Part shown: positions 11,214 to 64,000 of the stretch, one piece after another | Layout of the letters: every line of letters begins with the position of its first letter | Numbering within the stretch: position 1 is the first letter of the stretch | NCBI GenBank assembly: GCA_000091205.1 | Contig: AP006499.2 | Source: Cyanidioschyzon merolae | Taxonomy: Eukaryota | Direction: 5' to 3' (one strand) | Length of the DNA stretch: 64,000 nucleotides | The notes under the pieces: generated by a model | What the model was told of the DNA's origin: nothing | Seen by the model: only the letters and a program-made list of their open reading frames with translations | Databases searched by the model: none | Program-made: the position numbers and the translations under genes

Positions 11214-12204
11214 AACGGCTGGAGCCGTCTGGGCACACGTACTGTCCAGAACCTGTGCACCGGGAATAGTCCCTATGATGAAAAATTCCTATTTTACTCG
11301 GAACGTAAAGCACGGCGCGAATCGCTTTCGCCTTGAGCCGCCGACGCATCCGCGCGCCGTATTTTTTGACTGCGGCCGCATTTGAGTCTGGCGTCTTGTC
11401 CATGCGTTGTGAGCGCGCGATAACGTGCAGGAGAAACGAGTAGTTCCAGAAGGTGCACCAGACACCATTCGGGTCGTAGGCCGATCTCCAAACGGCTTTT
11501 TGCGAGACGCACCTGTGAAGATGGAGGCTGTCGAGAGCGCGCGCCCTGCTCCGCACTGTACCAAATTCCGGGGACGATCGCGTTCGAGCGCGGGAGCAGC
11601 GCCTCCCGTAAGCAATACGGACCCCATCAAGGCAACCGCCGGGGCTGCGATGCGCGCTACCCCTGCGGGTGATGGCTCCTGAACGTGCACCATCACAGCT
11701 GGGCGTACCAGCGAGCGAACAAAGCGCATCAGCGAGCAGAGCACATGATCGTATGGAACATCGGCATCGGGGGAGCTTTTACTCGTATACGCTGTAGCAT
11801 CAAACGAATACTTAAACCCACATATACCAAGCATACCTACAAACCCGACGATTGTTTGCCCCTAACCGCACAAGCGGATGCATCGCAGCGGCGGCGGCGG
11901 CGGCGGCCGGGGCCGCTCCATATTTCTCCAGCAGGGATCCGATCGTTGACGCATCAAGCGGGTATCCCGGGATGGCGCGATCGCTGCCAGCCTCTGGAAT
12001 GCGGCTCCAGTCGGGACGGGGCGGGACCAGCCGGGCGTGCCCGCTGGTGTGGCATTCTCGACGCATGCCCAGTCGATGCTCCTCGGCGGCGCGTAAAATC
12101 GGCATCACCACCCGTCCGTGCGAACGTGCTGTGCGCATGCAAGAACGATGAGCTGCAGCGCTCTCGCAGACAGCGTCAGGCGACGTCGAGTTCGAGTGTG
12201 TGGG

Positions 12205-12293
12205 TTTTTTTTCATTGAGAAAACGTTTACTTTGGCCAGCGTTCGCCGATCATGCGCATTGTTCTTTTCTTACCTTTTTTTCTCTTTTTTTCC
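12205..12293. repeat. Copy of ~85-bp T-run-bounded dispersed element (paralog of 40431-40512)
   Basis: About 90% identity to 40431-40512 over 'ttttttttcattga.aaaacgtttac..ggccagcgttc.ccgat.atgcgcatt.ttcttttcttac.ttttttt'. Near-identical 20-nt direct repeats 'tcgag.tcgagtgtgtggg' sit at 12187-12206 and 12485-12504. Confidence 0.6.
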
Positions 12294-12512
12294 AGTGCGC
12301 GGTAATGTATCTATCAACCCCCCACTCCCAAGTTACATTACCTGCACTTCTTCTCGGATATTCTGGTCGTTTCGTACGTCCAATCGTGTGCCTAGTGCCT
12401 GCCGAACGCGACAGCAATAGCGCCTATAGCGCCGGTACGGTCGCTGCACGGAGACAGAACGGCGTTGCTGTACCACACAAAGGGCGCCGGCTCGAGGTCG
12501 AGTGTGTGGGTG

Positions 12513-12533
12513 AGCGCGCGCGCGCGCGCGCGC
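12513..12533. repeat. (GC)n dinucleotide microsatellite (~10 units)
   Basis: 'gcgcgcgcgcgcgcgcgcgcg'. Confidence 0.9.
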
Positions 12534-17829: not shown

Positions 17830-20560
17830 AATTCGTGAGGCGACTTGCGCAACAAGAATACTCTGTCGACGCCCGGCATTCATAGCTATCCACCACATGC
17901 ACATTCCGCAATTCCCCGCACTACTGTTTGGTGGTTTCTTCCTGCACCGAACGTTGGACAAGAGCTCGGATGCTTGGCTCGCGCATCCCGGTCTCCGAAC
18001 CAGATGGCTGTATCTTGGCCACCTGGCACCAGCATGGGTTGCAGATCCCATGGATTGCATCCTGTTCGAATATGGGGCGGACGGCACCTCAGTCGCTCGT
18101 ACCCGGAACGAGCTCTGCGCTTTAGTCATTCAGGAAGAACGCTTAAATGCGCTCGCAGATACGTTTTGTAAGCCAAGTCCGTCGTCTCGCATCTGGTGAG
18201 ACGAGCAGTCACATGCTCTGTCTGTTGAATCTTGTTTTTTGCGTGTTCCTCGTGCTGTAAACGAGCCTCGCCTCGAGGCCGTATCTTCTGCTTCGGTCAA
18301 CGGCACGTATCTGACCCTGGGCTCGAGTACGCGACGGCGACCAGGTCCAGAATACCTGGCTCTTGGCCCACGAGTCTTTCGTAATTTTTCAGAGGCGGGA
18401 GGCTTTCTTCGTCTGCCATTTGCCCCGAGATATTCGGCGATGCGCTCAGTTGAAAGCTAGAACCGAACCCATCCGAGAGAAAATGGAAACTGAATGCACC
18501 GTTTCTGGTTTCGGCTGCTTAGATATTAAGGTTTTCGCGTTAAACCTTCCTCTTCATTTCCTCACTCGCTTTCCTTTCATTCTCAGCATGCCGTGGCGTC
18601 GTAGAATGCCCACGACACTCAAGTAAGTTAAAGGAACGTAACCAGTGATGAAGCCACGCTTTGTAGACAAGAGAGTGTACGTCGTGGGGCGTAGTGTACC
18701 TCTTCTGTCTTGTGCATCCTATTTTCGCCGGGAATTTGAAGCATTTACACACTTTTCTACCAATTCGTTTCACAGCGAAAGAGGCCAACGCTTCTTGGAA
18801 GAATGTCTCAGAGACATGCCTTGGGGAATGCATCTCTTCACGTCTTCCACGATCTCTGCCGCCAAGTTCAGCTTCGAATTACTTGTTCGGTCACTCGGAC
18901 GGAAGCGAACCTCGAGACTTTCGAACGATCCCGCGGGTACGACACAGGAAATCTCTTTTTCTCTCTCCCGAGGCTCTCTTTATTCATTTTCCATACTCCA
19001 GCTTGATCGAATCCTATCTAGGAACGACCACCCGTTTGTGGCCGCTCCGCTCGCCCGAGCTTCGGCCTTCTTGCATCCGCGTCCTCTCAGTGTCTGTTCG
19101 AAGCGAGATAAACGATCATGTGAACAGCGTCCGTCATCGCAAGCGAGAATCCCCAGAATGTGCAAGATCGCAAGGGCGTAGGGTTCCCTTCCCAGTCAGT
19201 TGCCTAAGGTAACTTTAAAACGGGAACGAGACACTTTATATTTCTTGGCGATGATGGTCTTGCAGGGAAGCAACCAGCTACATCTCGGTGAAGCGAACTT
19301 CCCCTTGGGTCACTCGCTCTCGTTCGTCATCCTCTCTCTCCCCAGCTCGAGTCAGACGGTACATTTTTTCTGTGCACCACAGGATGTGTTACACTGGTCC
19401 CAACAGCATAATGTCTTTCTTCACGTGGAAACATACCTTGAATCTCTAATTTATTCGAGAAAACCGAAGACTCGATACGTCATTTTGTTGCTCCAGAGGA
19501 GCTGAACCAGCTTTGCACAAGCGCTGGTGTATGGACGCTGCACTCGGTAACGACGAAATGGAACACACCTGGTCGCAGTGTTGCGATTTCTTTTCCGGGT
19601 TTTTTCAATTGTCCCGCCTTCTTATTCGAAACCCAGAAATAGGAACTTTCGGATTGACACGAACAATACGTATACATGGTTGTCGACTCGGAGAGGCCCC
19701 TTCGATTCGTAGCCATTGGAATTCCGTAGCTCCCGGGAATCACGATGATTCGCGACGCTCTCGAACAAGAATTCGTAAAATAACCTATACCATGATGCAA
19801 TGCATCCGTGCATGCCTCGAGTCATCTTGTATTTGCTAACATGCAGCATGTTCGAATAACGCATGCTTCATGTTTCGATCTTTGTGTCTCGAGGCAACTC
19901 GTCGGCGCTAGAATACGTGCCGCTGGATTGACGACACAAAAAAAAACGCGACATCGTTCATTGACGACTTGTTCGCAAGCTCGTGCTGAAAGTTTGCTGA
20001 GCAATCAAAGTCTAATAATCGATTCCATTCGATTGAAAAATCCTTCTCGGTTTACAATCATCGATGAAACGACATTCCACGTCATCTTGATATCTTGTAT
20101 GATGTATGGTTCCAGATGCTTCCGTCTTCGCATTTTGTACGGAAAACCGTCTTCGACTCGGACTTGAGTTGCCATGGCGATCGCTTCCGCTGGCGAGGTC
20201 GTCATTGCTCTGTATGATGCTTGTGGAACGGATCGAAAGATCTCTGTTTGATCGCCAACCTGGATTTTTCTTCCAGTACTTGTTTCATTGTGGACCAGAT
20301 CTCGTTCCACTAGCCCTCTATCGAATAGAACAGTGTACGCGTCACGGGTATCGCCCAGACGAAGCCCCTGGTTATAGAGTACGGCATCGAACGCGGAAGA
20401 GGAGGGCAGCATCAAGCCGATCCTCGTGCATTCGTCAAAGGAATGTACCAAGCGATAAAACAAGCGTTTACGCGCCACACGGCGACGCCGTGAGCAGGAG
20501 AAAGTGTACTAGACTCCTAGGAACATCTCACCACAGCCAGGTGTCACCAATACGAGGCGC
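17830..20560 (-). pseudogene. Degenerate TnpB/Fanzor-like copy 2 (multiple frameshifts/stops)
   Basis: Minus-strand ORF pieces are collinear with copy 1. 20005-20478 'FDAVLYNQGLRLGDTRD..LVERDLVHNETSTGRKIQVGDQTE..KMTWNVVSSMIVNREG' matches '[58 protein letters not shown]'. 19480-19800 'IIVIPGSYGIPMAT' matches RuvC-I '[14 protein letters not shown]'. 18540-18833 'QKRYTTPHDVH' matches '[10 protein letters not shown]'. Confidence 0.4.
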
Positions 20561-20912: not shown

Positions 20913-21791
20913 TCAAATTGCTCGATTGGGATCCTGACTGCGCGCAGAAGCTGCACTTTGTTCGCTGGTGAACGCCCTGCCAGAGGCTGGTTTCCGAGGC
21001 ACACCCCGCGTGGCCTCCGTCAGCCAGCCACCACCCGAGTCCTGGCCGTGACCGCTCGAAACCGCACTCGAGTTCATCGTTCGCCGTGAAGATGCGTCAG
21101 TGGTCGGCTCGATGTACTGCGCTGCGGGAGCCGAAACTCCACCCTTCTCCAGTCCGTCTGCCTGGTCGGTGTCCTCAGTGCCGGACGCTTGGCGTTTGCC
21201 CCAGAACCAGCCGCGCCCCGTTTTCGTGGACCCGGACGATGCTGATGCGGCCGCTGTGGTGTGCGTTGGGCCCGCATCCGCCGCAAACTCATGATTCTTG
21301 CCAAAGAAGACGTTGAGGAAACTGAAAGAGACGATGACGGCCCCAGATACAATTAGGAGCACTTTGCTCACGGTATCGCTGTCGCTAACACCAGCCGTGA
21401 TAGCCAGCGAACCGGTGAACATCTCGAACAAGCCACGTCCCCAGCGCCCTTTCAAGAACCCGAACGGGCGGAAAAAGAAACGAGGCCGACCGATTTCACC
21501 AAATATAATCAGCAAACCGAAAAACGCGACATACAGCATCACAATGAAGCCCAGCGGGTTGCGCAGCGCCTGTGCTGCTGTCGTGAAAAGCGTCACGAGC
21601 CCGAAAACTCCGGTGAAAACGAGAAAACCCCCCGAAACCACTGTGCACCACCGGAGCACTGTGCTTACCTTCCGCAGATCAGCCTCAAAGCAAATGCAGT
21701 TCTTCATCGAAACGAGCCCAAAACGTGCGATGAACGACGCCGACCGTGTACAGCAGTGGCGAACCGTACGCCCTGGACAGACCGTGTCCAA
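20913..21791 (-). CDS. Multi-pass membrane protein (possibly COPI-associated/TVP15-like); true start may be M at 21709
   Basis: Hydrophobic helices 'GGFLVFTGVFGLVTLFTTAAQ', 'GFIVMLYVAFFGLLIIFGEIG', 'LLIVSGAVIVSFSFLNVFF'. GC-rich like host genes. Lies directly between the two Fanzor-like copies. Confidence 0.35.
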   Translation of the reverse strand: MDTVCPGRTVRHCCTRSASFIARFGLVSMKNCICFEADLRKVSTVLRWCTVVSGGFLVFTGVFGLVTLFTTAAQALRNPLGFIVMLYVAFFGLLIIFGEIGRPRFFFRPFGFLKGRWGRGLFEMFTGSLAITAGVSDSDTVSKVLLIVSGAVIVSFSFLNVFFGKNHEFAADAGPTHTTAAASASSGSTKTGRGWFWGKRQASGTEDTDQADGLEKGGVSAPAAQYIEPTTDASSRRTMNSSAVSSGHGQDSGGGWLTEATRGVPRKPASGRAFTSEQSAASARSQDPNRAI

Positions 21792-24265
21792 CTGACGTGT
21801 AGACGCCTCCCCGTCTTTTCGGACCGGGCATCCACCACTGCTTCCAACTTCTTCTCATATAATTCCACTTTTAGAGGTTGTCCAATAAAGTTCTCTCTTG
21901 TCCAATCTGGAGGTCTTTCCTCCAGCACCGCACATTTCCTTATATGGATAGCGGCATTGAAGTCTCGGTTCACATACTCCATCCGTTTTTTGTTGCCATT
22001 GATTGTACGAACAAGCGCAAGGAGTCCACGAACGTTCGCCCTTCTTTCCATTTGCTCCCCCGTCATCGGTCCGTGCTTTGCTATTTCCTCAGGGCTCCGT
22101 TGGCACTTTTCTATCTCCACTCTCTGAAGTGTACACCCCAGTTCCTGGTGTGTATACGATGTTCGAAACTCATCTACAGGTATCGTAACAAAACGCCTTG
22201 CGCACGCCTTGTACACCCTCGTCGTTGGAGCTGGCGTAGTTCCTTTTTGGGTCATCCATCGTCCTGCCCCGTACGCTACAACCAGCCTTTGACTTTCATC
22301 CTCCTTCAGGACGCTCAACTCATTGAAAAATTCGCGAACGCCCGCTGGTTCCCACAATACAAATTCATTCGGAAACGAGCCCACCGGGGCTTGGTATACT
22401 CCTCCCACAGCGCATCCCAATGGGCAACACGAACTTCCATGAATTTCCGAAAAGCTTCAAAGTCCGCTCCACGGCTCGTCATCTCGCTCAGAGCTTCCAG
22501 GTGATCCTTCATTCCATGTCTCGACTTTCTTCCTCGCATTCATTATACCGGATTCTCGATGGTATCTTGCTCTCGAGAACCTCAAAAGACGCATGTCTTT
22601 CTGACGAAAGTTGCCCTCAGTACCATCTTCCGCACGCTTCGGTGCTGTGATGGTGATGATATTTGTGTTTCCGGGGTCCGCGCCAACAACAAAGTCGTTA
22701 TCCTGCACTTTCTGTGTCACAGGACCTGCCTTCTTGGTTTCTTCATGCTTCTCCGCGTAAACGACATGCACGTTATCCTCCACCTCCTGCGTCGCAGGAT
22801 CCACCTCCTTCTTTTCTTCATCCTTCGCCGCGTAAACGACAAGGTCGTTATCCTCCACCTCCTGCATCGCAGGACCAGCCTCCTCCCTTTCTTCATGCTT
22901 CGTCGTGTCAACGACAAGGTCGTTATCTTGCACCCTCTGCGTCGCAGGATCCGCCTCCTTCTCATCTCCATCCTTCGCCACGTCAACGACATGCACGTTA
23001 TCCTCCACCTCCTGCGTCGCAGGACCAGCCTCCTCCTTTTCTTCATCCTTCGTCACGGGCGCAGCTGAGGGAGGGACTGGCCGATCTGCCTTCAACCGCC
23101 GATAGTGTACACACAAGGCTACTCCATCGGTTTCGATCATTCCAGTGAATATCTTTTGTTTGCCGACTTTGAGCCGTTTGAAATCGAAGATATTCTTCCA
23201 GTACGTCTCCCGGTTTTCGCCGGTGAACTCTGTCCTCCTTACATCGAACTCCGGACTGATCTCCTTCATGATGCCGTAAAGGATTCTGGAATCGATGCTC
23301 ACAAAATGTGACTTGATGTTGCACATTGGAACCACGTTGAAGCGCTTCCCCATTAGGACAGCCTCCCGTCTCTCACACGCTTCATTTTTTTCCTCACTCA
23401 GCTTCGTTTCTGCCTTGCGTTCGAGCTCTCAGTCCAGAAACACGAAATATCGCAGGACGAGGCGATAGTATCTTTTCTTATCTTTTTTCATCTCTGATAT
23501 CTTGTCTGTTGGATTCACGAGCCCCAAGACTGCACGGTGCTCTTGTATAGCCGCACGGATTCCAGAAGCTTCATTCGTGAACTAGTTTGACGCTTTCTTG
23601 TCAACGATTTCGACCTCATCTTCACGCTTGCCATCTTTCGTGATGCCATTGATCATCGCCCATGTTCCTTTGCGAGATAGGCCCGGGTAGAGTGCAAACA
23701 CGGCGCGTATCATGAAACGTTCGAGGTTCACTGTCAAATGGTTCTTCAGGTTCGTGATGTACTTCATCGCCCCGTATATGTAAAAATTCGAGTCGCCCTT
23801 GTATCGAGTACCCTCGAAGCGGATTTTGGCGAAGTTTTCGTGGAGGTGCACTAGCACATTTTCCCTCCGCGTTTTCTCTCCACCAAGCATCAGGTGTCGA
23901 ATAAACGTCTTGTCGAAAAACTCGTCCGGAATCTCGACCGTTTCCATATCCGTCACGTCGCGATACATCTCCCTTGCCAAATGCATCAGTCCTGACGACG
24001 CCTTGACAACAATCTTGGAGTACGAGTCGACACGTTTTTTGATAGCGTCTCGCAACTTTTCCCTGTAGGGATCCTTGATATGTCCAAGACGAAAGGTTTT
24101 CACCACCTTCTCGTCGTACAGTCGTCTCTCGTGACGCCTTCGACGTAGGGCCTCCCCCTTTCGGTTCTTCTTCTCTCCCTGTTCTTCTGGACTCGGCACT
24201 GTTTTTTGTTTTTTTCTAGCAGCCGGCGACCATGGCCCTCCAGGATCGTGGACTTGCTTTTTCAT
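21704..24265 (-). CDS. TnpB/Fanzor-like RuvC nuclease (near-intact copy 1); ORF segments 24265-23582, 23353-22457, (22539-22315), 22420-21704 in different frames, probably joined by introns
   Basis: N-terminal basic NLS-like 'ARKKQKT...[17 protein letters not shown]'. RuvC-I '[18 protein letters not shown]' (D at about 22676-22678). Zn-ribbon-like '[35 protein letters not shown]' (HCCH). RuvC-III '[12 protein letters not shown]' (D at about 21962-21964). Confidence 0.55.
22676..23050. repeat. In-frame 75-nt x5 tandem duplication inside the Fanzor-like CDS, ending in the RuvC-I motif
   Basis: Minus-strand protein units '[25 protein letters not shown] / [25 protein letters not shown] / [25 protein letters not shown] / [25 protein letters not shown] / [25 protein letters not shown]'. 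Confidence 0.85.
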
Positions 24266-24582
24266 AACTTTCCTTTTATTAGTTTTTTTTTGAAAAAGAA
24301 CCCTCTTTGAACCCTTGTGTTATATACTGCGAAAAAACACTTGACTAGACTTGTTTGAGGTTTGAAGCAAAAACGAACTGAAAGACTGTACTTTGCCACG
24401 TCTTTAACGCAAGTACAGCTTGCACATTAGAGCAGCACGCTATTGATCAGGATCGCGTTTCCCTTCAACGGCGACAAGTGCGTCGCATCAGTTGACTGCC
24501 CGATCTCCCAGATGCGCTCAGTGAGCGCGCTGGGCGCATCGCCCCGTTAAAAACGCGCAAAGCACAGTGCCTCGACACAAGT

Positions 24583-27329: not shown

Positions 27330-28139
27330 TTTGAATCTATCGTAAGCATCCGCACTGAACATGCTCAGATGCTTGACGAGTGGCGTCCATGTGCCCGGTG
27401 ATTTGGGATGTAGTTTGTACCTCCATTGCCGCCTAGTCAACTGAGGTCCGTAGTTCGCAGGGATGCGATTCGCGAACGCTGACGTTGCGGATACATTCGA
27501 ACGCGATCGACCCGCGCTCATCTGCAGTTGCAGCGTTTTACGAAATGGTCCCTGGTGAGCCTCGTGCAAGCGCAGTCCGCAAATCCCGAGTTTGCGGACA
27601 CCCTGAAACATCATCGCTGCGCGTAAAACGCACCAGCTTTGCAAATAGCGCTGAGCCGTGTATCGCGTCAGGGTCTGAGCCATGTCAGCGGAAAAGGCAG
27701 GCCTGTGCGATGATGTCGGATATCGTGGATTTGCTGAGACAGTTGTCGCACAGGTACCCGCTGGCATGGAATCACGGCCGCTAGCCCCGTGCCAGATGAA
27801 AATGGAACGCTGAACTGCTCGCTCTGTTCCTGAGCTTCGTCGTTGCTTCTGAAGATTTCATAGATATACAGGATCGATTTTCGAGGTCCAGCGACAGGGG
27901 TTTACGGATTCATGCGTTGATGGAGGATCCTCGGTTGTAGCTTAGGAGTGGCCTCTTCAACGCTTTGCTCCTGAAATTCGATATGTCTCGGGAATCGAAA
28001 TGATTCCTGATGCCCTAGAACAAAGTTTCATAAAATACCCACCATCATGATAAAATTTACAAGTCGAAGCTTCGATTCGACTGCTTTCCTTACGTGTAGC
28101 ATGCTCAGATCACGCTTGCTCCAAGTTTTCGGCCTTTAT

Positions 28140-28830
28140 GATTCAGGGCCAATCGCGGGCACAGCACTGCGCGCCGCAGCATCGATGACCACGAAAAAAT
28201 ACATCGATCTCCTCTCTTGACGGCTTGTCCGGGTGCTCATGCAGAGAGTTCACTGAATCCGCCGGGGGTAAATACCGGATACCATTCGAAAAGAAAATTC
28301 GTTTGTCTTTGTGACGATCGATTGTACGGGATTCGAAAGAGACAGCACGATACTTCTGACGGGATATGCTCCAAAGGGTCACCGTCTCTGCTGGAGCTGT
28401 TGTGAGAGGTCTTACGCTCGGAGTTCGTTCATCGTCGAGATCGCTTCCAGTGGCGATTCCGTCATCGTTTTCCACATAGGGAGCGTAGACGAATCGGGAT
28501 TTCTCGACTTTATTCTCCAGCCGAGAAATTTATCCTTACAGTACTTGCTTCATCATGGACAAGATCGCGTTCCAGAAATTCTCTATCGAATGCGACAGCC
28601 TGCGCTTGGGCGCGCAGCGTACTCGCCAAGGGCTTCGCCCGGAAGATGCCCCCGGTTATAGGGTATTGCGCCAGGTGCGGACGCTGAGGCATGCAGCGGG
28701 TGAGCCTTCTGTTCCTGGCAAAGGCATGCACACAGCACTGAAGCAAGCGTCAACACAGGGCAGTGCTCTGACAAGGAGGATGGAGTGTAGTGTGCATACG
28801 GGAACGCCTAACCAAAGCCATGTGTCATCG
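28140..28830 (-). pseudogene. Degenerate fragment of TnpB/Fanzor-like gene (copy B; N-terminal ~230 aa equivalent, intron-less at the copy-1 intron site)
   Basis: 28510-28746(-) '...FLERDLVHDEASTVRINFSAGE' aligns with copy-1 '...[18 protein letters not shown]'. 28143-28475(-) 'IDRHKDKRIFFSNGIRYLPP...SREEIDVFFRGH' aligns with copy-1 'IVDKK|[12 protein letters not shown]...[11 protein letters not shown]'. B reads straight through where copy 1 has the 228-nt gap at 23354-23581. Confidence 0.4.
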
Positions 28831-29716
28831 TTTCGATTGGCGCACCCAGGCTCTGTACAACGACAATGAACATGGCAAGCGAAGCGCAGATCGGTACCTT
28901 TCCCTGTTCATGAACTACGTTGACAGCAGACGGAAGCTGCGAATTCGGAAGTTGAACGCTGCAGGCAACATCCCTTGAATGCTGATAGCGGCGCTTGAGC
29001 GACAAACGAGACTAGTGTGCTTTAAGACGGAGGCGAGCGAGGAAATGAAAGCAGACTTGGCGGGAAAAAGCCCGCAATGGCTGGTGTTGGTGACACTTGG
29101 ACGAGGCCCGAGCGCCCACATGTAAGCCGGAGCTGGTGCTCACATTCCATTCTGTTCTGGCATCGGCACAGCCGCGACCAATACGTTCCGTTTAATCGTC
29201 GAGTCCCATGTAGTGCATGCCTTCTCGCCAAAACGATTCGTCGTGACGCAACGCCATGCTGCAGGATGGATCATGCGTAATCGAGCACATCCTGGTGCCA
29301 TACAGCCGCGTCATTTCCATAGATTCGACGACGCGGTATCGCCATAGCGACACTACGGCAGTCGGCTGCACGATGTACACGGGAGGCGCCGCGTTCGCAT
29401 CGCCCATCCGTCGAATGCCGCTCACCCCGCAAAATCGTGCGTTTCCAGACGCTCACAGCAAGTAGGACGCGGTCATGTATGGCCATGTGTCAAGCCACGT
29501 GAATCGGAAGCAGGAACTGTGCCACTACACGATTCGAAGCCGAATCCTTGCATGGGGATAAAGACTGCGCCTCGCCTTTAGCTCCAAAAGTGTGGCGTTC
29601 GGTCTGTTCGGCCGCCGTCTCTACTTGCATCTCTGGCGGATGCTCGAATGCACCAGCGAAATTTGACGTAGCTGCCTAGTCTTCAGATAAACGCTCCTGC
29701 AGCGTGCATCTTGCGC

Positions 29717-36821: not shown

Positions 36822-38962
36822 ATATACATGATCAGTGAAACAAAAAACGTTCTACGACTTTTGAGGGTAAAACTATATCAACGCGCAGAAGCTTCCCAGT
36901 TTGTTTTTCGTACCGGCCGACTGCTATAGGCTTCAGCTCCTCCTGGTAAATCTCGAGAATCAGGGGCTGCCCCACGAGCTCTGATCGCCTAACCTCCTCG
37001 GGTCTTGTCTTCAGCGTCGCCCATGTCCTGATATATGAATGGCGGCGTTCAGGTTTTGTATTCACGAACTCCATGCGTTTGCGGACCCTGGTTGAACGCA
37101 CGAATACACGGAGTCCTCGAACTCGTGCCGCCTGTGCCACTAAAGTCTCGACATACTCCCGTCGAGTAAACGCCTTTTCTCACCCATGTCCGTTCCTGTT
37201 CTTCTTATTGGTCAAATGGTCTGCTTCGCTCGGTGGTCGGCGAGGAGGAGGATTTTTCCTTTTTCAAGCATCCGGGGATGACAGGCCGTCAGGATCCGTG
37301 ACCTCCGTGTCCATAACTTTCCCCTGGATTTTTATTTCCTCAAAACGAACGCATCCCTTTATGCCGTTCGATGAGGACCTTCCCGGAGGCAGAAGGACTT
37401 GCGGAATAAAGACGACCGGTGCCGCTGGTTTCACCGTGGGCTGTACGCCTCAGCGATTCGCTCCGTCGACCGATCATTACACTTCACGATGGAAAACACG
37501 CCTGCGACGGGGATGGACCACGGAGTGTACCCAGGAATGAAAAGCAGCTCTACTCTCGATAGAATCCACAAAAGTTCGAATGCAATGGGAAAAGTCTCCA
37601 ACGATTAGGGAACGGCGTGCTGTTGTATGAGTCTTCTCTACGAGCGAAACTGAGGCCGCCAAATGAATCCACTGCAAATAGAACAGATGAAGAGGTCATT
37701 GGCCTCTTGGATTTCGATCCTACATAGAAAGGACTCCATCTCCACGAATACCCATGAACGCTCCCATCGCCGCGTCCGCAGAAAGCCTCATCGACAGAAA
37801 AACAAACCCCAGTCCCTGTGCTTCATATCGATGGTAACTTACCAGGAACATTGCTGTAGTTACGATTTCGGTCGAAGATGGCCGCGCTTGAACTAGGACT
37901 TTTGCGACTATATCCCAGTGTTTTCGAGACTACACGAAAAAGCTGGTGAGAAATAGAGACGCCCGTTGCGGCTGATATCGTCGGTTTCACCTACCCCAAA
38001 GTGAACAACGGGTCGCCTTCGACCATCTTTCGCAAGCAGTCTATGAATGTACCTGTTTTGGCGCGGAACGCATATACTTGGTCCTTTCAGTGTTCCTCAT
38101 CCAGCCGAGTCCATTGGTATGACTGATCTGAGGGAGGAATGCAGTCCTCATTGAACTGTTCACTAGAGCATATATCTAGACGCAATGCGTCTACGATCTA
38201 TCGAGTACATCGCATAGCGATTTCGATCTCGTGCTATACACCGCAGCAGGGATGAAACAGTACTGCGTTGGAAGGCTATAAGAAGTGATGCTCCGTAGCG
38301 TTAAGCGAAACCGCGGCGCCTCGACCTGGCGCGCGTCATTCGCATCACCTGCCTTTTAGAGAATAAGCTATCGATGAAGCCTCGCTTTGACAGAAATGGG
38401 GCGCGCTGTGGTGTGTTCGACACCCACATTGCGCTTCTTGACAAACGTCCCAAACGAAGACCATTTGCGTTGACGCCGTACCGACGACGCGAAGCGCCCA
38501 GCCAGCGGATCCGTCCTAGGCCTCGCTGGAGGGCGGCGCCTCCTTTGAAACGGCTCCGACCAGCTACGGCTGCAACAGCCGTGCACGTTCAGGAGCGCCC
38601 GTGCAACGCGTCGTCAAGTCGCCGGCGTCGAATGCGTGTTCGCTCCGACGGCTGCCTGGAAGCTACTTGGGCACGCCACTCTACTCAGTAAAGTGACGCA
38701 CTTCAGTCAATGTCATCCGGTGCATACGCGTTTACCAATAGTTCATGGTGAGAGGCGCAGCACGTCTGCATGTTCGGTCGACGATATCGCAACCGCAAGC
38801 ACACGCGATCCCGCGCAGAAAAGCCTTCCCTGTCCCTCTGCATCGGAACGAAATATCCGCGCAGAAATGTCTTCTCGCATGGTGAAGCGCTTCGCTCCCG
38901 AACGCAGTGCGTCAACTGCAGGAATTGCTTCCCGCCAAGTGCGCACGCGCGTGATACGATAC

Positions 38963-38999: not shown

Positions 39000-40325
39000 C
39001 TAGGCGAACCACGCCACACTGCGTAGGACGTACATGCGTAATCCGTAGGCTAACGCGCAACACAGTGCCTGCAAGATCATCAAAACAAGGCAGAGCTGTC
39101 GCTCCGTCATTGGGCCGCAGAGCAGGAGGACCAGGTTGAGCAGGTTCATGTGGCTCGGAACGCCCTCAAGCTTGCGAGTCTTCGGATTCAGCCGCGGCAG
39201 TCGATGGCGCGGACACCGGATGATCCCCAGTAATTGCGGTAAGCTGTACAGGAAATTGAACACCTGCGGAACGAAGAAGAGGAGGAGCGTCTCGCTGTAG
39301 TGTCCCAAGATCGCAGCCATGGCCAAACACATACCTGCAAAGTAGCAGTAGGTATCGCCGACGAATACTGCCGAAGGATACCAGTTGTGAACAAAGAGCG
39401 CGGCGCTGGTCGCCAGGAATGGCACGATCAAGTCCAAGGAAAACAGATGGTTCGCTCGTAGACGTTCGGGGTCTGCAACTGGCAAGGCGAACCAGCCTCG
39501 CAAATGCGCTGCATTATGTAACGCAACAGCACAGCCGATGACGATGGCTTGACCAACTTCCAAACCATTGATTCCCGCGTGAATGTTAATGGCATTTGAG
39601 CAGAACACCGCCAGCAGGAGCATGTAGAGTTTGTATATCCAACCGAGATCGACCAGTCGCGGTACAACAACGGGTAGTTTCCAGAGCTTGGCCCATTCTT
39701 TGCCGTATGAAAACGAGGCCACTTTGGTGAGCAGCCAACCGAACCACTGTCGAACCGGCTGCGGTACGATGACCGTTGTGGAGCCGGTGTAGGCTGCCAA
39801 CAACGGCAGAGCCGCCACGCTCGGTAGAATCATCTTATCGCGCCAACGCAGATCAAGCACATCATCCGCGAACCCAAGCAGAATCATAAATGTTACGGAG
39901 GCGAGGGCGGCGTTGTAGAAAGGGGTCGCCTCTGGACCCCGGAACAAGTGGAAGAAGCACAGCCCGCAGAGGTATACGGCAGCCGCTACAAGGCCCAGCG
40001 CTTCTGGCACCAAGGGCTGCTCTTGCGTCGCATCAGCGCCCTCTTGCTTCGTCGGCGGCTTGTTCAAGTCACGCCCATAGAGTCCTGCTTTGATGAAAAG
40101 CGGTGAGAAACGCGGGATCAGAACGAGCGTCGCGAGGAACACACCGGCGGAGCTCCACCAGTTGAGCGCTATGTGCGCACGTGCCTCTGCATCCAGCTGT
40201 ACGTAAACAGCTCCAAGTGCCGCCAAGATGAGCGCGAGCGCGTAACGAGCGTTCCATATGCGTGCTCGTAGGCAACGAGGATGCTTGATCGTACTTGACA
40301 TTGTTGCACCGCTGACGCAGCACAA
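39000..40325 (-). CDS. ALG7: UDP-GlcNAc:dolichyl-phosphate GlcNAc-1-phosphotransferase (GPT)
   Basis: Multi-TM protein with glycosyltransferase family 4 motifs: 'FADDVLDLRWRDKMILP', 'NAINIHAGINGLEVGQ', 'VFVGDTYCYFAGM'. Confidence 0.75.
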   Translation of the reverse strand: MCCVSGATMSSTIKHPRCLRARIWNARYALALILAALGAVYVQLDAEARAHIALNWWSSAGVFLATLVLIPRFSPLFIKAGLYGRDLNKPPTKQEGADATQEQPLVPEALGLVAAAVYLCGLCFFHLFRGPEATPFYNAALASVTFMILLGFADDVLDLRWRDKMILPSVAALPLLAAYTGSTTVIVPQPVRQWFGWLLTKVASFSYGKEWAKLWKLPVVVPRLVDLGWIYKLYMLLLAVFCSNAINIHAGINGLEVGQAIVIGCAVALHNAAHLRGWFALPVADPERLRANHLFSLDLIVPFLATSAALFVHNWYPSAVFVGDTYCYFAGMCLAMAAILGHYSETLLLFFVPQVFNFLYSLPQLLGIIRCPRHRLPRLNPKTRKLEGVPSHMNLLNLVLLLCGPMTERQLCLVLMILQALCCALAYGLRMYVLRSVAWFA

Positions 40326-40430
40326 AACGCACGAGTCGCGTGCGTTCGAACACGTTGCGAAAGGATGGCGCTGTCGTAGCCGCTGTGGCGGTTATGCGCT
40401 TCTTCCTCAGAGAGATGCCGCGGCCTCGAT

Positions 40431-40512
40431 TTTTTTTTCATTGACAAAACGTTTACGTAGGCCAGCGTTCTCCGATTATGCGCATTTTTCTTTTCTTACT
40501 TTTTTTTTGTGT
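40431..40512. mobile_element. ~82-bp non-autonomous insertion with perfect 13-bp target-site duplication (MITE/retroposon-like)
   Basis: Direct repeats 'ccgcggcctcgat' at 40418-40430 and 40513-40525 flank 'ttttttttcattgacaaaacgtttacgtaggccagcgttctccgattatgcgcatttttcttttcttactttttttttgtgt'. About 90% identical to 12205-12293. The minus strand ends in an A9 tract. Confidence 0.5.
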
Positions 40513-41129
40513 CCGCGGCCTCGATGCTGCGGTACCTCGCAGCGGGGGTCGGCGGGGAACCGTGGCGCCCTTAGGCTTCGCGGCAACGCAGATGCAGGTC
40601 GGTCCGGGAACGGACACCCAAATGCCGAAGCGCCCTTGCCTCCATGACAGGGGCATATATGCAAGCGTTAATGTTTGTTGCCTGATGATAGCCAGCACAC
40701 CTGGTTTCGGGAGCTTCTGAGTCGAGTTCATTGATCCTCCAGGGATGAGCGTTCCTCGTTCGCCGCGTCGGGCGGGATCTTCGTGAATGTCGTCGAGGAA
40801 GGCGACATCTCCGCACTCCGCGAAAGCGTCCCGGATAGGCGCGTCCTTCTCGTTGAAGGAAGGACGGACAGGAGGTCAGGCGAATACAACGATGCCTGAA
40901 GTGGAAGGGCATGCCCTTCGTCGGTCCTCGGTCGCAGCAGGGCATTCGCGGGATTCGGCGTCAGCGCCATGGAACTTGCACAGAGACAACAAGATGCGCC
41001 GTTGAACGCGCTGAACCCGCATTCGATGAAGATGGAACACTGTACTGCTCGGTATGCGCCTGCCTTGGGATTTTTCTGGACTTTTTTTTTAAATTGTGGA
41101 TTCTCGACACTCGACGTGCAGTGATAAGG

Positions 41130-41450
41130 GCTTAAGGATTCGTTCGTAGTTTTAGTTTTCTCGACTTGATCTCCATCCTGGAATTTCGTTCCAATTCCTG
41201 CCTCATCATGGACAACACTCCGATGCACAAATCCGCTAGCGAGTAGAACAGCGTCTGCTTCTATGTGCAGCGGACAGGGTGCTCGCTTCGGGATTGTCGG
41301 GACGAAGCTCTTGATCGTTGTGTACGACAACTGGCGCTGCAAAACGAAGGCGAGCATCAAGTGTATCCCTGTGTACCCGTCACGCGCATGTGGCGAGCGA
41401 AGAAGCAAGCATTCACCCGCCACAGGGCGGCGCTCGGAGGACACATTGTG
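41130..41450 (-). pseudogene. Short degenerate fragment of TnpB/Fanzor-like gene (copy C)
   Basis: 40728-41444(-) 'ADAVLLASGFVHRSVVHDEAGIGTKFQDGDQVEKT' aligns with copy-2 'FDAVLYNQG..LVHNETSTGRKIQVGDQTE' and copy-1 '[23 protein letters not shown]'. Nucleotide similarity to 20270-20520 and 28530-28800. Confidence 0.35.
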
Positions 41451-42320
41451 GTGGATCTATGGAAAAATTGGCCCCAGTCCATCATCATCTGGGCGAAATT
41501 CGCACCAAACTTGTTCAACAAAGAATCTGAAAATGGCAAACAGGCTTTAGATCCAACCACCTGCTGGGCAGGATATGCGTCGACAAGAGCCCGCAGCAGA
41601 AAGTCAGGATATTGATGCTCTCCTTCGTATGATTTTTCGTGTGCTGGCAACGGAGCTCGAGTGAAGACACACCCTGTCGAATTTGAATCCGGAGATATGC
41701 GAGACAGGGATAGGAATCAGTCGCAGAACAAGCCCGCAAAAACTGACCCTTCTGGGGACGCGTAGAGACCCGGACGCTGGTGCGTACGCCCGAGTCGCTC
41801 GGTACGTACACCTGCTCCATTGTAAGCGAACATGTATATAAAGATATCAATAGGCACCTAATGCAATAAAACTAGACACATATGGGCACAGGATGTGTGC
41901 GTTTTCGCTGCGTGCCGCACGCCGCGCACCCCCCGCGAAATCGAAACGCTTGCGTCGGCAAGCCGCAGGAGCGCGCGCGCGCTCGTAGCCCCGCAGCCGT
42001 TTCGATCTGGAGCGCGCAGGGTACCCGGCCCCGACGCCGATGATGCGATGGGGTGACGGCCCTGGCGTTGCGTCCGCTGCAGCGGGTCGCTCGTCAGCGG
42101 GAGGCGTTGCAAACGGAACGTCCTGCGCTGGGCGGCAGCGATGCGCAGCGGCGCACTCCACAACGGCACCAGCAGCAGCACCAGCAGCAGAGCTGTTCTC
42201 GATATCGGAGCATTCGTCGACCGCGGCAGCTGCTGAAGAGGCCGCGATACGCACAGCAGCCGCCCGTGCCTGCTACCAGGGGTCGCGTTCGGCTCTGCTG
42301 TATCAGGCGTCGACGTTCCG

Positions 42321-44256: not shown

Positions 44257-45048
44257 TCAGCGCTCGTCGGAACGAGCCTCCCGCTTATCCTCCTTCAGCG
44301 CGTCTCGTTTGTAAATGACCTCATCGATGAGACCGAACGCTTTCGCGGCCTCCGCAGACATGAAATGATCGCGCTCCATTTTGTCCGCAATAACATGCTT
44401 ATTCTGACCCGTGTGCTTGGCGTAGAGCTCGTGCAAACGCTCACGCAGAAACAGAATCTCATTGGCGTGGATGGCAATATCTGAAGCCTGCCCGCCGGCT
44501 TGCCCACTCGGCTGATGAATCATCACACGAGCGTTCGGTAAGCAGCGGCGCTCGCCCGGCTCACCCGCGCATAGCAGCAACGATGCCATAGAGCTCGCCT
44601 GGCCCAAGCAAACCGTGTGCACCGGAGCAGATATATATTGCATGGTGTCGTAGATCGCCATCCCCGCTGAGATGATGCCCCCTGGTGAGTGAATGTACAT
44701 AGAGAGCGCCTTCGCCGGCGCTACCGACTCCAAGTACAGCAACTGCGCAACGACGAGAGAGGCCACGGTATCCGTGATAGGACCGTTGAGCACAATAATA
44801 CGCTCTCTGAGCAGACGCGAGTATATGTCGTAGACGCGCTCTCCTCGCGGTGTCTGTTCGAGGACGATGGGTACGAGTTGCGCTTGAGCGGCGTCAGCGC
44901 CTGCTGTCGTGGGCCCAGCGTCGAAGCCCGGGCCGGTTCGGTTCGGAATCCCAGGGCGGAACCAGGAGTAAAAGCGAGCACGTGCACCTAGACGCGAAAA
45001 AGTTTGCGCAGACGGCAGGATTCGAACCTGCGCGGCGAGACACCACAT
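44257..45048 (-). CDS. CLPP: ATP-dependent Clp protease proteolytic subunit (organellar ClpP) with N-terminal presequence
   Basis: '[22 protein letters not shown]', 'MYIHSPGG', '[15 protein letters not shown]', 'RVMIHQP'. The annotated first Met (45048) lies inside the tRNA-Ser gene. Confidence 0.75.
44997..45001 (-). terminator. Pol III T5 terminator immediately 3' of tRNA-Ser
   Basis: Minus-strand sequence after the tRNA 3' end is 'CAAACTTTTTCGCG'. Confidence 0.45.
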
Positions 45049-45139
45049 GATACCGAGGCGTCAGCGCGAGGCAATGTATACCAGCACTGGCTGCAGAACG
45101 CGTTCGAGTCATGCACCTTAACCACTCGGTCACGTCTGC
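45007..45139 (-). tRNA. tRNA-Ser(CGA) with ~51-nt intron (about 45052-45102) 3' of anticodon position 37
   Basis: Minus strand: acceptor GCAGACG/CGTCTGC (7/7 bp); D-arm ACC-GAGTGGTTAA-GGT; anticodon stem CATGA/TCATG with loop CTCGAA[intron]A; long variable arm TGGTGTCTCGCCGC; T-arm GCAGG-TTCGAAT-CCTGC. Near-identical in architecture to yeast tRNA-Ser(CGA). Confidence 0.8.
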
Positions 45140-54864: not shown

Positions 54865-55992
54865 GAATGCATGCGTGCACGCATACGCCCGCGCATCGAT
54901 GAGCTGCCCTGTACTGGTGGCAGTCGTCGAGCGGCTGCGATTGCTGCCAGGCTCTATTGCGCGTGCATCGGTGCATTGGGACACGACGCAGTGCAGATTT
55001 TTCCTCTTTGACACATCGTTGAAACACCCACGCAGACGGACGGCAGACCAGCGATTCCCGATTGCGCGATGGATATGAGCGATTCGCGAAGCATCCGTCG
55101 TTGCACGCCGTCATTCCATACTCAAGACCCATACGTACTCGCGGGGGTACTTGTTACGTTTCACGTTGCATCGGGCGCGGCGTGCATGCTTTAAGCGTTC
55201 GCGATAGCACGCACGGCGCCGGCGCGTACGCAGCACAGACATAGAACGGCTGTGCGATACCACAGAAGGCATTGAATCCGTAATGTCGATGCTATTCGCT
55301 GCGGCGATCGGGGTACGGCGGAGCGCGCTCGGTGGGTGGCCCCCGCCCGAGAATCCCGCAACCACAGAATCAGGTTCCGAATTGCATGGCGAGCTCATGC
55401 ACCTGCTCCCAGCAGCAGCGTATCGGAGCAGTCGGGGAACCCAGACCAGTAGTTGCATTGACAACGTAAACGAGCACCGTCTGATCGCGAGAATGGACCC
55501 AGCGACGTTGGCATCCGACCGGAGCCTGCGCTTCGTTGGCGCTCGTACTTGATGAAGCGCGCGACGCTGCGATCGGCAGGACTGACGTTGACCGCCATCT
55601 CTGTAGTCACGCACCTGGGATGCACGAATACCGCTGCTGGAGCGACGCTCGAGGATGCGCACGCGACCCATACCAATCGGGGAGCGCCATCGTCGACGAT
55701 GGCGATAAAGGCACGGCGCCCGCTGGAACGCGTGAATGCCGAATACCGGCGACCAACACGACGCCATGCGGCTGCACAGGGCCGGGCAGTCGGTGCTCCT
55801 GAGTCGTCGCGCGGGCTCGTGGCGGTGCAGCTGGCACCGACCGAAGCCCTGCCGCAGGCGCAGCTTCGTTTTCGACGGCGATCCGTCGTTGTCGTTGGCG
55901 TCGTCGTCGTCGTCGAGACGATGCACCACACAGAGCTGCTGCCCCGGATCCGGCGAGGCCAGTGAACCACGCGCCCATGCTGCAAGCATACT

Positions 55993-58014
55993 TTATAGAT
56001 CGATATCAAAGTGAACCGTGGGTTGCCAGCGAAACAGGGGCACCTTCCCGTGTCCCTCTTGTTCCGCAAGATCCGCGTCGTTGCAAATACTCGCGTTGAA
56101 CGTGTGTGGACCGCGAGAAGTGCTCGCGATGAGCTGAAAGTTCCCGTATCCACGTGGACGTAAGGCGGTATTCAAACCGAAACCGATGACAACACCGCGC
56201 TGTTTTGACGGCGGTGCCATAGCCCGTTTCTCCATCCGCGTCATGGCCTGAAGCTGGGCAGTCGGCGAGTCCCGGTATTTGTTCGCTGCCTCGAGCAAAG
56301 TGTTCTGCAGATCTGTTCGGCTGCTACGATACGAGAGTCGCATGCTGGGTACCAGTAGTTCTTCGGCTTTTCGATTGAAAAATTCATCCATCCTCCGAAC
56401 GAGGAACTGACACTCGAACTCGCTGACCATGCCGCTCCGATCTGCGATGAGGGCGAGCATCTGGTCTCGGAAACGGGTCATTGTTTGATTCTGTAGCAGC
56501 TGGATTTGTCGATTGAAAAGCGCTCGGATATGATTCTGAAGTGTCGACACGAGCTCGTGGCGTTTGCGGTTCCGAACGAGCGATGCGCTGCTACTGGTCA
56601 AGGCACTTGTTTCGGAGTCGTACTTTTCGCCGGTGGTCGTCAACAGTTCTTGGGCCTTACTCCCGAAACCATCCACCAACTTGCCGCTGTCGACCTGGTT
56701 GTACCACTTGGATATTTGCTCTAACGCTGAGCGGAGCAGGCGATCGTAGACGACTCCGCAACGATGCGCTGCTACTAGTTCCGCGTAGTCTGGCAGGCCT
56801 CCTTCCTTGGGCTCAATGAGTTCTCTCCATACCATGTCCACGTACGTCGCAAATCCTTCCACCGGTAGCTCCTTGGAGTAACGGGGCGCCAGTAGGTTTT
56901 GGTAGATTTCTGCTGCGTCCGCGGACGAGCTGCTCTGCGGCCAGAGCACTGCGCCAGTGGCACCCCTGCCGGTGAGAAAGCGGCTCCGAAGCGCATCGAT
57001 CGCCTTGTTGTACGCCTCCGCCCGATAGCGGCGATGCGGAAGCGAGATAACTTCGATATCAAAGTGATCCCCAATGCGTGCATCGCGGTATTCAACTGGC
57101 TTCTCCACCTGAGTTGCCCATACAGCCTCGAGGTCACGCTCAATAATCGCAGCGATTGCCTCGAGAGGCGACCCATCATCGTGATCGTGGACGATGAATA
57201 AGATTTTGCTCCTAGCAGGCGATTCCTTCGTGAAGAGCTTCAGATGCTCACTAAATATGGTCCTTATGAGGGGCACATATCCAGAGGCCTCGGCTCGACC
57301 GATGTCTGCGTACCAAACGTTCACCAGCATCACATCCGATATCGTCGTTGCCAGCATCGCCACGCGTATCGCTCGTGGAACCGTCAGTTGGAGTGCGCGT
57401 TCACGAGCGCCAGCCCCGGCGTGATCGGCAGCGTTGGCGCTGTCTCCGCGGCGCCCAGTGAGCCTTGCTCGGGACTCCGCTTCGACGAGGAGTGCCTCAG
57501 CTTCGGCGTCTTCGAGCTCTGCAGTTTCCTCGGTTTCTCGGCCGTCGATTCCTTCTGAATCAAGAAGCAGCAGCCACGGCGCTTGAGGGCCGGCAACGCT
57601 GCAAAAACAACCACGAGTACCGCGAGCGTGTCGCGCAAATGTCCGTCCTGTCGCAAAACGGGTCCCAAAGAGGTCGTTCAAAAGCGCCGACTTGCCACTG
57701 CCCCGTGGTCCGAGACTCGTCACCACTGCGAGTTCGCGCTGTCCTAAGAAGCCGGCCTCGTTGCCGGCGACATTATTTGCGGTTAACTCGGCATCTAGAG
57801 GCCGTACGTTCAGAGATATCCAGTCGCCAAGCGCAGGATTCAGCTCCCCCTGCGTGCTGATCATGTGAAGCGGCGCAGTCGCCCCGCTCGCGACACCCGC
57901 ACTTGCCATAGTCAGCGGCTTGTGTTGCGTTCTCGGTGAATCGCACTGTAGAAGTTTGACGCAGCACCGGTCCTCTCGGCAGGTGTTTCTATCGCTGGCA
58001 CGTGCCGAGCACAC
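55993..58014 (-). CDS. SEY1: Sey1/RHD3 (root hair defective 3) atlastin-like dynamin-family GTPase
   Basis: 'VVTSLGPRGSGKSALLNDLFGTRF' (GxxxxGKS P-loop in an RHD3 context) and a long helical middle domain. Confidence 0.7.
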   Translation of the reverse strand: MCSARASDRNTCREDRCCVKLLQCDSPRTQHKPLTMASAGVASGATAPLHMISTQGELNPALGDWISLNVRPLDAELTANNVAGNEAGFLGQRELAVVTSLGPRGSGKSALLNDLFGTRFATGRTFARHARGTRGCFCSVAGPQAPWLLLLDSEGIDGRETEETAELEDAEAEALLVEAESRARLTGRRGDSANAADHAGAGARERALQLTVPRAIRVAMLATTISDVMLVNVWYADIGRAEASGYVPLIRTIFSEHLKLFTKESPARSKILFIVHDHDDGSPLEAIAAIIERDLEAVWATQVEKPVEYRDARIGDHFDIEVISLPHRRYRAEAYNKAIDALRSRFLTGRGATGAVLWPQSSSSADAAEIYQNLLAPRYSKELPVEGFATYVDMVWRELIEPKEGGLPDYAELVAAHRCGVVYDRLLRSALEQISKWYNQVDSGKLVDGFGSKAQELLTTTGEKYDSETSALTSSSASLVRNRKRHELVSTLQNHIRALFNRQIQLLQNQTMTRFRDQMLALIADRSGMVSEFECQFLVRRMDEFFNRKAEELLVPSMRLSYRSSRTDLQNTLLEAANKYRDSPTAQLQAMTRMEKRAMAPPSKQRGVVIGFGLNTALRPRGYGNFQLIASTSRGPHTFNASICNDADLAEQEGHGKVPLFRWQPTVHFDIDL

Positions 58015-60940: not shown

Positions 60941-61465
60941 TTACCATTCCATAGATGATTTTTTGAACGCGATGTCGTCCATGATAATTCGAGTCCTTGA
61001 ATGAAAATCCAGGTTGGAAAACGAGAATTCGAGAAATTTCGATGCTTCTACGCTCGCATCGTGCAAAGCAGCGACGCACCCTCCACTGAAAGCAATTGCT
61101 AAGGTTGCTCGAGCTTGAGCCAAAAATCCGTTTCCATCCAAATAGAAGAGACGGGAATCTCCAGAAGCATATCTCACGAGAACGATCATGCCGCTGTCGA
61201 GTACCAATTCCTTGATGTCTCGCATGGAGTTAGTGTGCGCCTTTCGAACGAACTCGATTGCTTGATGTGACAAGTTCAGCGAACTTTCGGCACGAGCGTA
61301 GGAGCAAGTCCTCGAAGTACGACGTCGAGTTTTCTTCTCTCCGGTCCAGTGGCGCGCCTTGTGGCGCTCGCAAGCTGTTGTAGAAAATGCGAAAGCTTGA
61401 TGCATGTGTGATTTGAGCATGCTTCTCGTCATGAAAAGAGAAGCATCGAGACCTTTACACATCAA
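60941..61465 (-). CDS. Possible roadblock/LC7-fold protein (LAMTOR/dynein light chain-like); weak
   Basis: 'ELVLDSGMIVLVRYASGDSRLFYLDGNGFLAQARATLAIAFSGG' resembles the roadblock pattern. Confidence 0.2.
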   Translation of the reverse strand: MMCKGLDASLFMTRSMLKSHMHQAFAFSTTACERHKARHWTGEKKTRRRTSRTCSYARAESSLNLSHQAIEFVRKAHTNSMRDIKELVLDSGMIVLVRYASGDSRLFYLDGNGFLAQARATLAIAFSGGCVAALHDASVEASKFLEFSFSNLDFHSRTRIIMDDIAFKKSSMEW

Positions 61466-61959
61466 CCGGATATCGATATCGGCTGCTTTACGAACCTTTG
61501 CTCGAGGGCGTGGCGAATCATCTTGATTCCGGCAACGACCATGAACTCCAGCGGCGAAGAATCGAGTGCGCCACTATGAAAAAAAACACCAAGAAGCCGA
61601 AAACCACGTGTGCACTCGTGCGCCCTTATTGCTGTTCTTGGAATACCGAGGCTGCGCATCCAAAAAAGCGGAAAAAAAATCGAAAGGCAGGAACAGAGCG
61701 AGCAGTTCAGGGTTCCGTTTCAGTCTGAAACTGATGTTTGCGTACAGGGCCGAGCACCGCGCCGTTGCCGCAGTTGCTTGGCGCTCCGCATAGCGCTGGA
61801 CTCGACAGGGACCATTCGCCACTGGACAGCGTGGTTTTCGATAAACGTGCGGCAAGCATTGCGGAGACACCGTGGAAAACCGAGACCGCTCCCGGAGCTT
61901 GGCATGCGGCAAATTCAAACCCATGCTGACCGGTTGCCGCTGCCAGTGGCAAACGTCAT

Positions 61960-63093: not shown

Positions 63094-64000
63094 TTTCTCT
63101 CCGACGATAAAACGTTTCCATGGACAATGGGTCCCAGATTGTGAGATGGATAATGATTATCGAAAGAGCGTCCATCATGACGCACTTACCTCCGAGTTCC
63201 ATTACCTATACTTGCTTCCAGATGTACTGGTCGTTTCGTATGTCCTATCGGTCACAGAGTACCTGCTTTGGGCGCCTGCGGTAGCGCTTATATATCGCTG
63301 ATGCCGATGCATCACGGAGACAGAACAGCGTTGCCATACCGTTGAGTTCGCTCGGGCGTACTGTGAAATGTTTGGCTCCCTTCCCAGTGTCATCAATACC
63401 AACCTTTGCAGGCTTTTTCTGTGACCGTTTCCCGTCGCTTTCTCTTATCCCTGGCTTGACATGCACCAGTCTCGCCTTTCTATCAAGAACAGCTGTCCAG
63501 TGTCGAAGGACGTTGATCACAGCGTTCAATGGCCGACTTGCCGCTTCAGGCTGTTGTCGACGCATACCATGCACAGGTGAACGTTGCGATCTATGCTTCG
63601 CTTGCGATTTTCATCTTCCATGGATAGAGCTTCGGTTGCCCTGTCGCAGATTTGGCACGTCCGTGTAATCGGATGTTCGCATATGTCCACCACACCGCAT
63701 CCTCCGAGGTGCACCCTGTTTCACGTGAACACTCGCGTCGTCGCTCGCTACGTACCCGTGACGAATACGAGAAATCGTCTCGATGCCTTCCTCCATCTAC
63801 GCGCTCGGTGCAGTACCCTGGAATCACGGGCTTCTTCTGTGCGATCCAACTGCCGCTGCTCTGGCTGTTGCAAGCACGTGTTGTACTATTCTATAACGGA
63901 CTTATCGAAGACGATGTATTCAACGACGAAACTATTACTTGAAGCAAAATCAAGGCTGGACAAGAAGGCAGGGAACCTCGATCTGTCCATGGTCGCTTCG

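Follow-up and report, generated by a model that had tools for sequence, protein, structure and literature searches.

SINEs, as exemplified by the Alu/L1 pair and by the tRNA-SINEs of plants and green algae, are short, non-coding and dispersed, with a defined 5′ end and an A tail. They are flanked by target-site duplications, are frequently 5′-truncated, fall into subfamilies and depend on LINE machinery. The family described here from Cyanidioschyzon merolae, whose genome contains such machinery, is alike in these respects. It is unlike them in having no detectable tRNA, 7SL or 5S head and no A or B boxes, and in carrying an internal TTTT near its 3′ end. Moreover, whereas the TT|AAAA nick of L1 is loose, the first-nick target of the C. 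merolae element, (G)C|ATC, is unusually specific.

Similar likenesses are encountered in RIME/ingi, NARTc/L1Tc and SIDER of the trypanosomatids and in the R2 'SIDE', which are non-autonomous, a few hundred bp long and A-tailed. LINE-deletion derivatives of the RIME/ingi type also share a near-constant duplication length, 12 bp in ingi/RIME versus ~13 bp in the C. merolae family, as well as a recognisable target preference. RIME, NARTc and SIDE are defined by both ends being common with a parent LINE, and the C. merolae family is compared with them by other features alone; among them there is no obvious counterpart to a 575-nt form enclosing the start of a shorter one. Lastly, processed retro-pseudogenes of small RNAs carry the same hallmarks of insertion, and a structured RNA source is plausible here too. 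Unlike such pseudogenes, the C. merolae family has subfamilies, tens of copies and a consistent full-length form, and we know of no source RNA gene for it. In the way it works, the element resembles a SINE, or a non-autonomous retroposon that relies on a LINE.

In the C. merolae genome paper the count of non-LTR retrotransposons is 26, of which three retain an intact RT ORF; eight DNA elements are listed as well, and a SINE-like family of this kind is not mentioned (PMC1955436). SINEs do not figure among the repeat classes that Ensembl gives for the species (PMC11050394). A RepeatModeler survey from 2023 reports 0 SINEs, 2,857 unclassified fragments and 1.34 Mb of unclassified repeats (PMC9812998); its LINE fragments number 295 and add up to 230 kb (PMC9812998 Suppl. 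Dataset 4). Our own search, made in the literature, found no description of the family.

An A-tailed insert flanked by a 13-bp duplication

The window, by which we mean the whole 64-kb stretch of DNA analysed, belongs to C. merolae chromosome 17. It contains an AT-rich segment, copy A, against a background of ~57% GC. The segment precedes the ATG of a GlcNAc-1-P transferase (NAGT) gene by 130 bp and has the same orientation as this gene. The features of copy A are as follows.

40431..40512, minus strand: copy A, probable 5′-truncated retroposon, corresponding to the final ~82 nt of the consensus
40431-40438, minus strand: A8 tail of copy A, by direct reading of the letters
40418..40430, no strand: target-site duplication of copy A, tail side, exact 13-mer CCGCGGCCTCGAT (sense strand ATCGAGGCCGCGG)
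40513..40525, no strand: target-site duplication of copy A, 5′ side, exact 13-mer CCGCGGCCTCGAT

The preliminary description of this locus had read the 13-mer as a perfect insertion signature, and this is borne out: the 13/13 repeat directly abuts 40431-40512. Its sequence occurs exactly twice in the window, both times against copy A, with no further occurrence even when one mismatch is allowed. The chance of an exact 13/13 repeat around a segment is ~2e-8, or ~2e-6 with a slack of 11 positions per end. On the minus strand, copy A runs from ACACAAAAAAAAAGTAAG to GTAAACGTTTTGTCAATG, followed by A8 and then by the duplication. The retroposon-like tail reported earlier on this strand is likewise present, the element ending in ...GTCAATG plus A8 and the next A being the first base of the duplication. 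The reconstructed empty target reads ...GAGAGATGCCGCGGCCTCGATGCTGCGGTACC....

The 82-bp segment did not hold up as the unit of the family, since it matches only positions 217-290 of a 291-nt consensus (nhmmer, E 9e-20; matched 40434-40507). It differs from the profile consensus at 5 of these 74 positions, and four of the five are positions at which full-length copies also disagree. We consider it very probable that copy A is a 5′-truncated copy of a SINE-like, non-autonomous non-LTR retroposon, made by target-primed reverse transcription.

Further copies in the window

With a family profile built from eight full-length copies, nhmmer located four minus-strand copies in the window. Two of these, C and D, are additional to the copies bearing the conserved 3′ 20-mer described below.

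12205..12497, minus strand: copy B, full-length short form (~291 nt plus tail), profile positions 1-291, E 2e-93 (nhmmer; matched 12207-12497)
12497, minus strand: 5′ end of copy B, CCTCGAGCCGG, a start point common to eight other independent full-length copies
12205-12212, minus strand: A8 tail of copy B
12192..12204, no strand: target-site duplication of copy B, tail side, 13 bp TCGAGTGTGTGGG (sense strand CCCACACACTCGA)
12498..12510, no strand: target-site duplication of copy B, 5′ side, 13 bp TCGAGTGTGTGGG (sense strand CCCACACACTCGA)
63106..63349, minus strand: copy C, old and diverged, profile positions 13-281, E 5.5e-28 (nhmmer)
55089..55274, minus strand: copy D, old and diverged, only the 5′ two-thirds recognisable, profile positions 9-194, E 1.5e-13 (nhmmer)

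Copies A and B are 90.9% identical over 77 bp at 12205-12281 (BLAST, with MAFFT in agreement), and in both of them the T8 run adjoining the left repeat is the precise point where homology sets in. The claim of a second, ~90% identical copy near 12205 is thus right as to identity, while the aligned stretch is really the 3′ part of the full-length element at 12205-12497. A 20-nt direct repeat, taken previously as the bracket of this copy, does exist, its proper positions being 12186-12205 and 12492-12511. Only 13 of its bp are target-site duplication; the rest is the element's own 5′ end, CCTCGA, which resembles the flank by coincidence. A (GC)n microsatellite (12511-12535) directly adjoins the 5′-side duplication.

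A gap of 13 bp separates the 3′ end of copy C from the first ATG of the ORF downstream of it, which encodes a Brix domain (61960-63093, minus strand; Pfam), so that the 5′ leader of this gene appears to be built of retroposon sequence (63093-63120). Copy D overlaps the far end of an ORF at 55111-55989, which is in the same frame on the minus strand as the neighbouring RHD3/Sey1-type GTPase ORF (55993-58014), with a single stop codon between the two.

A dispersed family with a common 3′ end

We scanned the metagenome contigs of JGI with TTCATTGANAAAACGTTTAC, a degenerate 20-mer taken from the conserved 3′ end, and obtained matches at 97 loci. About 60 matches, from acidic hot-spring samples, carry the rest of the element and represent 22 C. 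merolae-like sites with unrelated flanks; the other matches are chance occurrences in unrelated organisms. The family profile detected 10 more copies, mostly diverged and without the exact 20-mer, in 299 kb of unique flank. Scans of viral contigs (with two patterns) and of prokaryotic genomes gave no match. Rather than being confined to the two copies first seen, the family occupies ~33 distinct genomic sites with different flanks (20-mer scan and profile search together), and reading-frame comparison found no ORF conserved between copies. The earlier proposal of a small, non-autonomous dispersed family is confirmed.

Nine independent full-length copies begin at the same CCTCGAGCC (also given as CCTCGAGCCGACGCCCTC) and finish with ...GTAAACGTTTTGTCAATGA plus a stretch of A residues, giving a consensus of ~291 nt with 50% GC. 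Intact copies all end GTCAATGA(A)5-10, with tails of 5-10 nt. The 5′ truncation point varies while the 3′ end, GTCAATGA(A)n, is kept, yielding copies of 45, 52, 75, 82, 91, 96, 107, 127, 185, 212, 246 and ~291 bp. A rarer long form of ~575 bp, starting CTACCTTCTAG, was found at two sites (L113/L049 and L089); it has its own 14-bp duplication, and the start of the short form sits inside it. With the exception of these two sites, homology between sites extends over no more than ~300 bp. Full-length copies at different sites are 84-90% identical, and older subfamilies 66-79%.

The copy number can be estimated from two deeply assembled samples with 17 and 19 pattern-bearing sites, 14 of them common, from which a Lincoln-Petersen calculation gives ~23 genomic copies with an intact 3′ 20-mer. 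That a single 64-kb window has two such copies is probably a consequence of the way it was flagged. Diverged copies occur at ~1 per 30 kb, a density biased by a sample chosen around known copies; were it typical of the genome, relics would number several hundred in all.

The copies might alternatively be the 5′-truncated 3′ ends of an autonomous C. merolae LINE and not members of a separate non-autonomous family. LINE tails would bear identical hallmarks of target-primed reverse transcription, and the genome has 26 to 295 LINE copies or fragments. However, nine independent copies have one exact 5′ start, with duplications right there, and two more share the 575-bp start; common exact starts of this kind would not arise by random truncation. 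Furthermore, none of the 22 pattern-bearing sites exceeds 575 bp and no RT ORF lies nearby, motif scans of 510 kb of family-bearing loci, of long ORFs and of the window, with Pfam searches of the window ORFs, having found no RT motif. We judge an origin as LINE tails very unlikely, and treat the copies below as a non-autonomous family in its own right.

The head of the element and its RNA structure

SINEs as delimited in SINEBase are short, non-coding and dispersed with unrelated flanks, which holds for this family, and possess a Pol III-derived 5′ head with an internal promoter, which was not found here; we therefore call the element SINE-like and not a SINE. Neither copy B nor the long form matched a tRNA, 5S, 7SL or snRNA (Rfam cmscan, E up to 10). 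Over the window, Rfam at its gathering threshold returned nothing relevant to the element, and ARAGORN found nothing. Pol III A/B boxes, which the preliminary description had proposed to check for, and a tRNA-type head were not detected by Rfam or ARAGORN. The head may be a very diverged derivative of a Pol III RNA. The sense strand also contains TTTT 12 nt before the A tail. This motif would be a Pol III terminator, and the biology of a classical SINE transcribed by Pol III is accordingly not supported.

The consensus as a whole folds no more stably than its shuffles (z = -0.46). A long hairpin was delineated in the head (alignment A2, columns 37-118), in which 93% of cells are paired and four pairs show compensatory changes separating subfamilies. 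Sliding the hairpin by 1-3 columns lowers pairing to 31-38% of cells. Double-change cells number 12 against 5.1 expected, and none of 500 shuffles reached as high a count, a control that is inflated by sequence relatedness. Taken together, these values are suggestive of source RNAs under structural constraint. A 10-bp helix is predicted between GAUAGGACGU and ACGUUUUGUC, the most strongly conserved pair of blocks. This helix is invariant, and so is neutral as evidence on structure.

A conserved hairpin is also what one might look for in retro-pseudogenes of a functional, as yet unrecognised cellular non-coding RNA gene, of which the family would be a by-product without selfish master copies. 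The pairing retained in the head through compensatory changes agrees with this, as do central and 3′ blocks that are conserved even in old copies. Against it stand the lack of any Rfam family in the search above, the inflated shuffle control, and the occurrence of several subfamilies and a long form, as expected of evolving master elements. We accord this explanation very little probability, and favour a retroposon with master copies of its own.

Insertion signature and target preference

Target-site duplications were curated for 15 sites and measure 8-21 bp, with a median of 13 bp. Among the 15 reconstructed targets, the tail-side junction is strongly patterned: position -1 is C in 11 (binomial p 3e-4), position +1 is A in 12 (p 3e-6), position +2 is T in 11 (p 3e-5) and position +3 is C in 13 (p 4e-6), while G occupies position -2 in 8. 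The consensus of this junction is (G)C|ATC. No motif was found at the opposite, 5′-side junction of the same targets. The common 3′ end, one-sided truncation, A tail and ~13-bp duplications are hallmarks of target-primed reverse transcription as carried out by non-LTR retrotransposon machinery.

The remaining candidates, a miniature DNA transposon (MITE) or an immobile conserved regulatory motif, would suit a short, intergenic sequence such as copy A, placed shortly ahead of the NAGT start codon, yet can practically be dismissed: terminal inverted repeats, which together with a short duplication of fixed length mark class II elements, are absent (the ends match at 11-12 in 23-30 positions, the chance level), the duplications are long and variable, the A tail is at one end only and truncation is one-sided, and the 32 sites show no clear bias toward gene 5′ ends (31/51 flanking gene ends, ORF-based).

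Proposed mechanism

For the retroposon reading, we infer an RNA intermediate, a mobilising enzyme and a transcribing polymerase, which may have acted as follows. An RNA of ~291 nt, or more rarely ~575 nt, ending in ...GUAAACGUUUUGUCAAUGA(A)n would be captured by the reverse transcriptase/endonuclease of a C. merolae non-LTR retrotransposon. The endonuclease would make its first nick in the bottom strand, preferentially at (G)C|ATC, and the exposed ...GAT-3′ end would prime on the A tail, with reverse transcription proceeding toward the 5′ end of the RNA. A second nick ~13 bp away would then give rise to the 13-bp target-site duplication. In copy A, reverse transcription would have stopped after ~82 nt, while in copy B it would have reached the 5′ end of the RNA. 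Weighing against this reading, the RT scans described above revealed no autonomous partner.

Occupancy in populations and in the sister genus

Site A is filled in all 24 of the C. merolae population contigs spanning it; the element itself is 100% identical in them, and around the site their identity to the window is 98.9-99.8%. Another five contigs, which are shorter, have their start within copy A, as is expected of contig breaks at a repeat. The length of the A tail of this copy differs among population contigs, ranging over A8-A11 (40430-40438; L121-L127), in the manner of a short microsatellite. Site B is filled in 10/10 contigs covering it. No empty allele was present at either site among all C. 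merolae contigs reaching them, and mobility consequently rests on the duplications and on family structure, not on a comparison of filled and empty sites within the species.

Another site is structurally polymorphic between populations. One sample (L077) has a single 52-bp truncated copy there, while in three others (L039, L091, L095) this copy and its 13-bp target-site duplication are repeated in tandem.

Gene order is conserved in Cyanidiococcus yangmingshanensis and in a lineage related to it, and the NAGT protein is 77% identical. No family copy was found in the four syntenic Cyanidiococcus loci (~21 kb); a sequence residing in relatives without target-site duplications, which would have pointed to an ancient motif in place of an insertion, was accordingly not seen. 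The spacer between the kinase and NAGT genes measures 0.45-0.8 kb in Cyanidiococcus versus 2.17 kb in C. merolae, a comparison which, as the intergenic DNA of the two genera is unalignable, supports just the absence of the family and a shorter spacer. Cyanidioschyzon intergenic regions are reported to have been expanded by repeats (PMC9812998), and the shorter Cyanidiococcus spacer agrees with such an expansion.

Implications for the Cyanidioschyzon repeat landscape

The family bears on why intergenic regions are ~2x as long as in the sister genus. If a density of ~1 degenerate copy per 30 kb is true, hundreds of insertions of the family would have gone into the intergenic expansion by which Cyanidioschyzon differs from Cyanidiococcus. 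A defined consensus, duplication length and target motif would shift part of the unclassified repeats into a known class, and the motif would directly read out the target preference of the C. merolae LINE endonuclease. The family would also supply presence/absence markers for Cyanidioschyzon lineages.

The general principles of mobile-element biology are unchanged by these observations. Specialists may nevertheless find some surprise in the narrow (G)C|ATC target, in an unrecognisable head with a conserved hairpin, and in the existence of a SINE-like family, missing from published repeat classifications, in a genome advertised as nearly transposon-free. We suggest, tentatively and with some doubt, that the Cyanidiophyceae may here have their first characterised SINE-type family, combining a head from no known Pol III RNA, a conserved RNA hairpin and a partner endonuclease with a narrow (G)C|ATC target.

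Neighbouring genes, transcripts and other repeats

The genes of the window are intronless and lie on both strands; they include adaptin, GalT, FPGS, a pseudouridine synthase, NAGT and kinases. GC-rich, intronless genes would also suit a trypanosomatid, an origin that the mixture of strands and the protein matches to Cyanidiophyceae exclude. NAGT, at 39000-40301 on the minus strand, shows complete identity with C. merolae BAM81973/XP_005538009. The 3′ end of its mRNA lies at 38268, which gives a 3′ UTR of ~730 nt, according to two metagenome contigs that are polyadenylated and cDNA-like (L118, L125). One of them starts at ~40357, downstream of copy A; the other starts at 41099 and reads through copy A in sense orientation as part of a longer transcript. 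No evidence was seen that family copies have acquired a function.

Other dispersed repeats in the window lie at 17407-19498, 19718-20127, 21732-24520, 27786-29093, 36823-38244, 41154-41455, 60953-61728 and 63123-63811. They show ~66-72% identity with non-syntenic C. merolae contigs, and no Pfam domain was found in the ORFs tested inside the 18.6-24.3 kb repeat blocks. These are probably the 'WSV486-like' or unclassified repeats of the literature. A dispersed unit of ~520 bp adjoins old retroposon heads at two loci (L018 and L047/L083); it was considered as an extension of the element and rejected, being a separate dispersed repeat.

Among the known traits of C. merolae are tRNA genes that are permuted or rich in introns. 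One tRNA gene of the window, at 45007-45139 on the minus strand, carries a long insertion, spanning 133 bp for a 71-position model; it was detected by Rfam at 48.9 bits and missed by ARAGORN.
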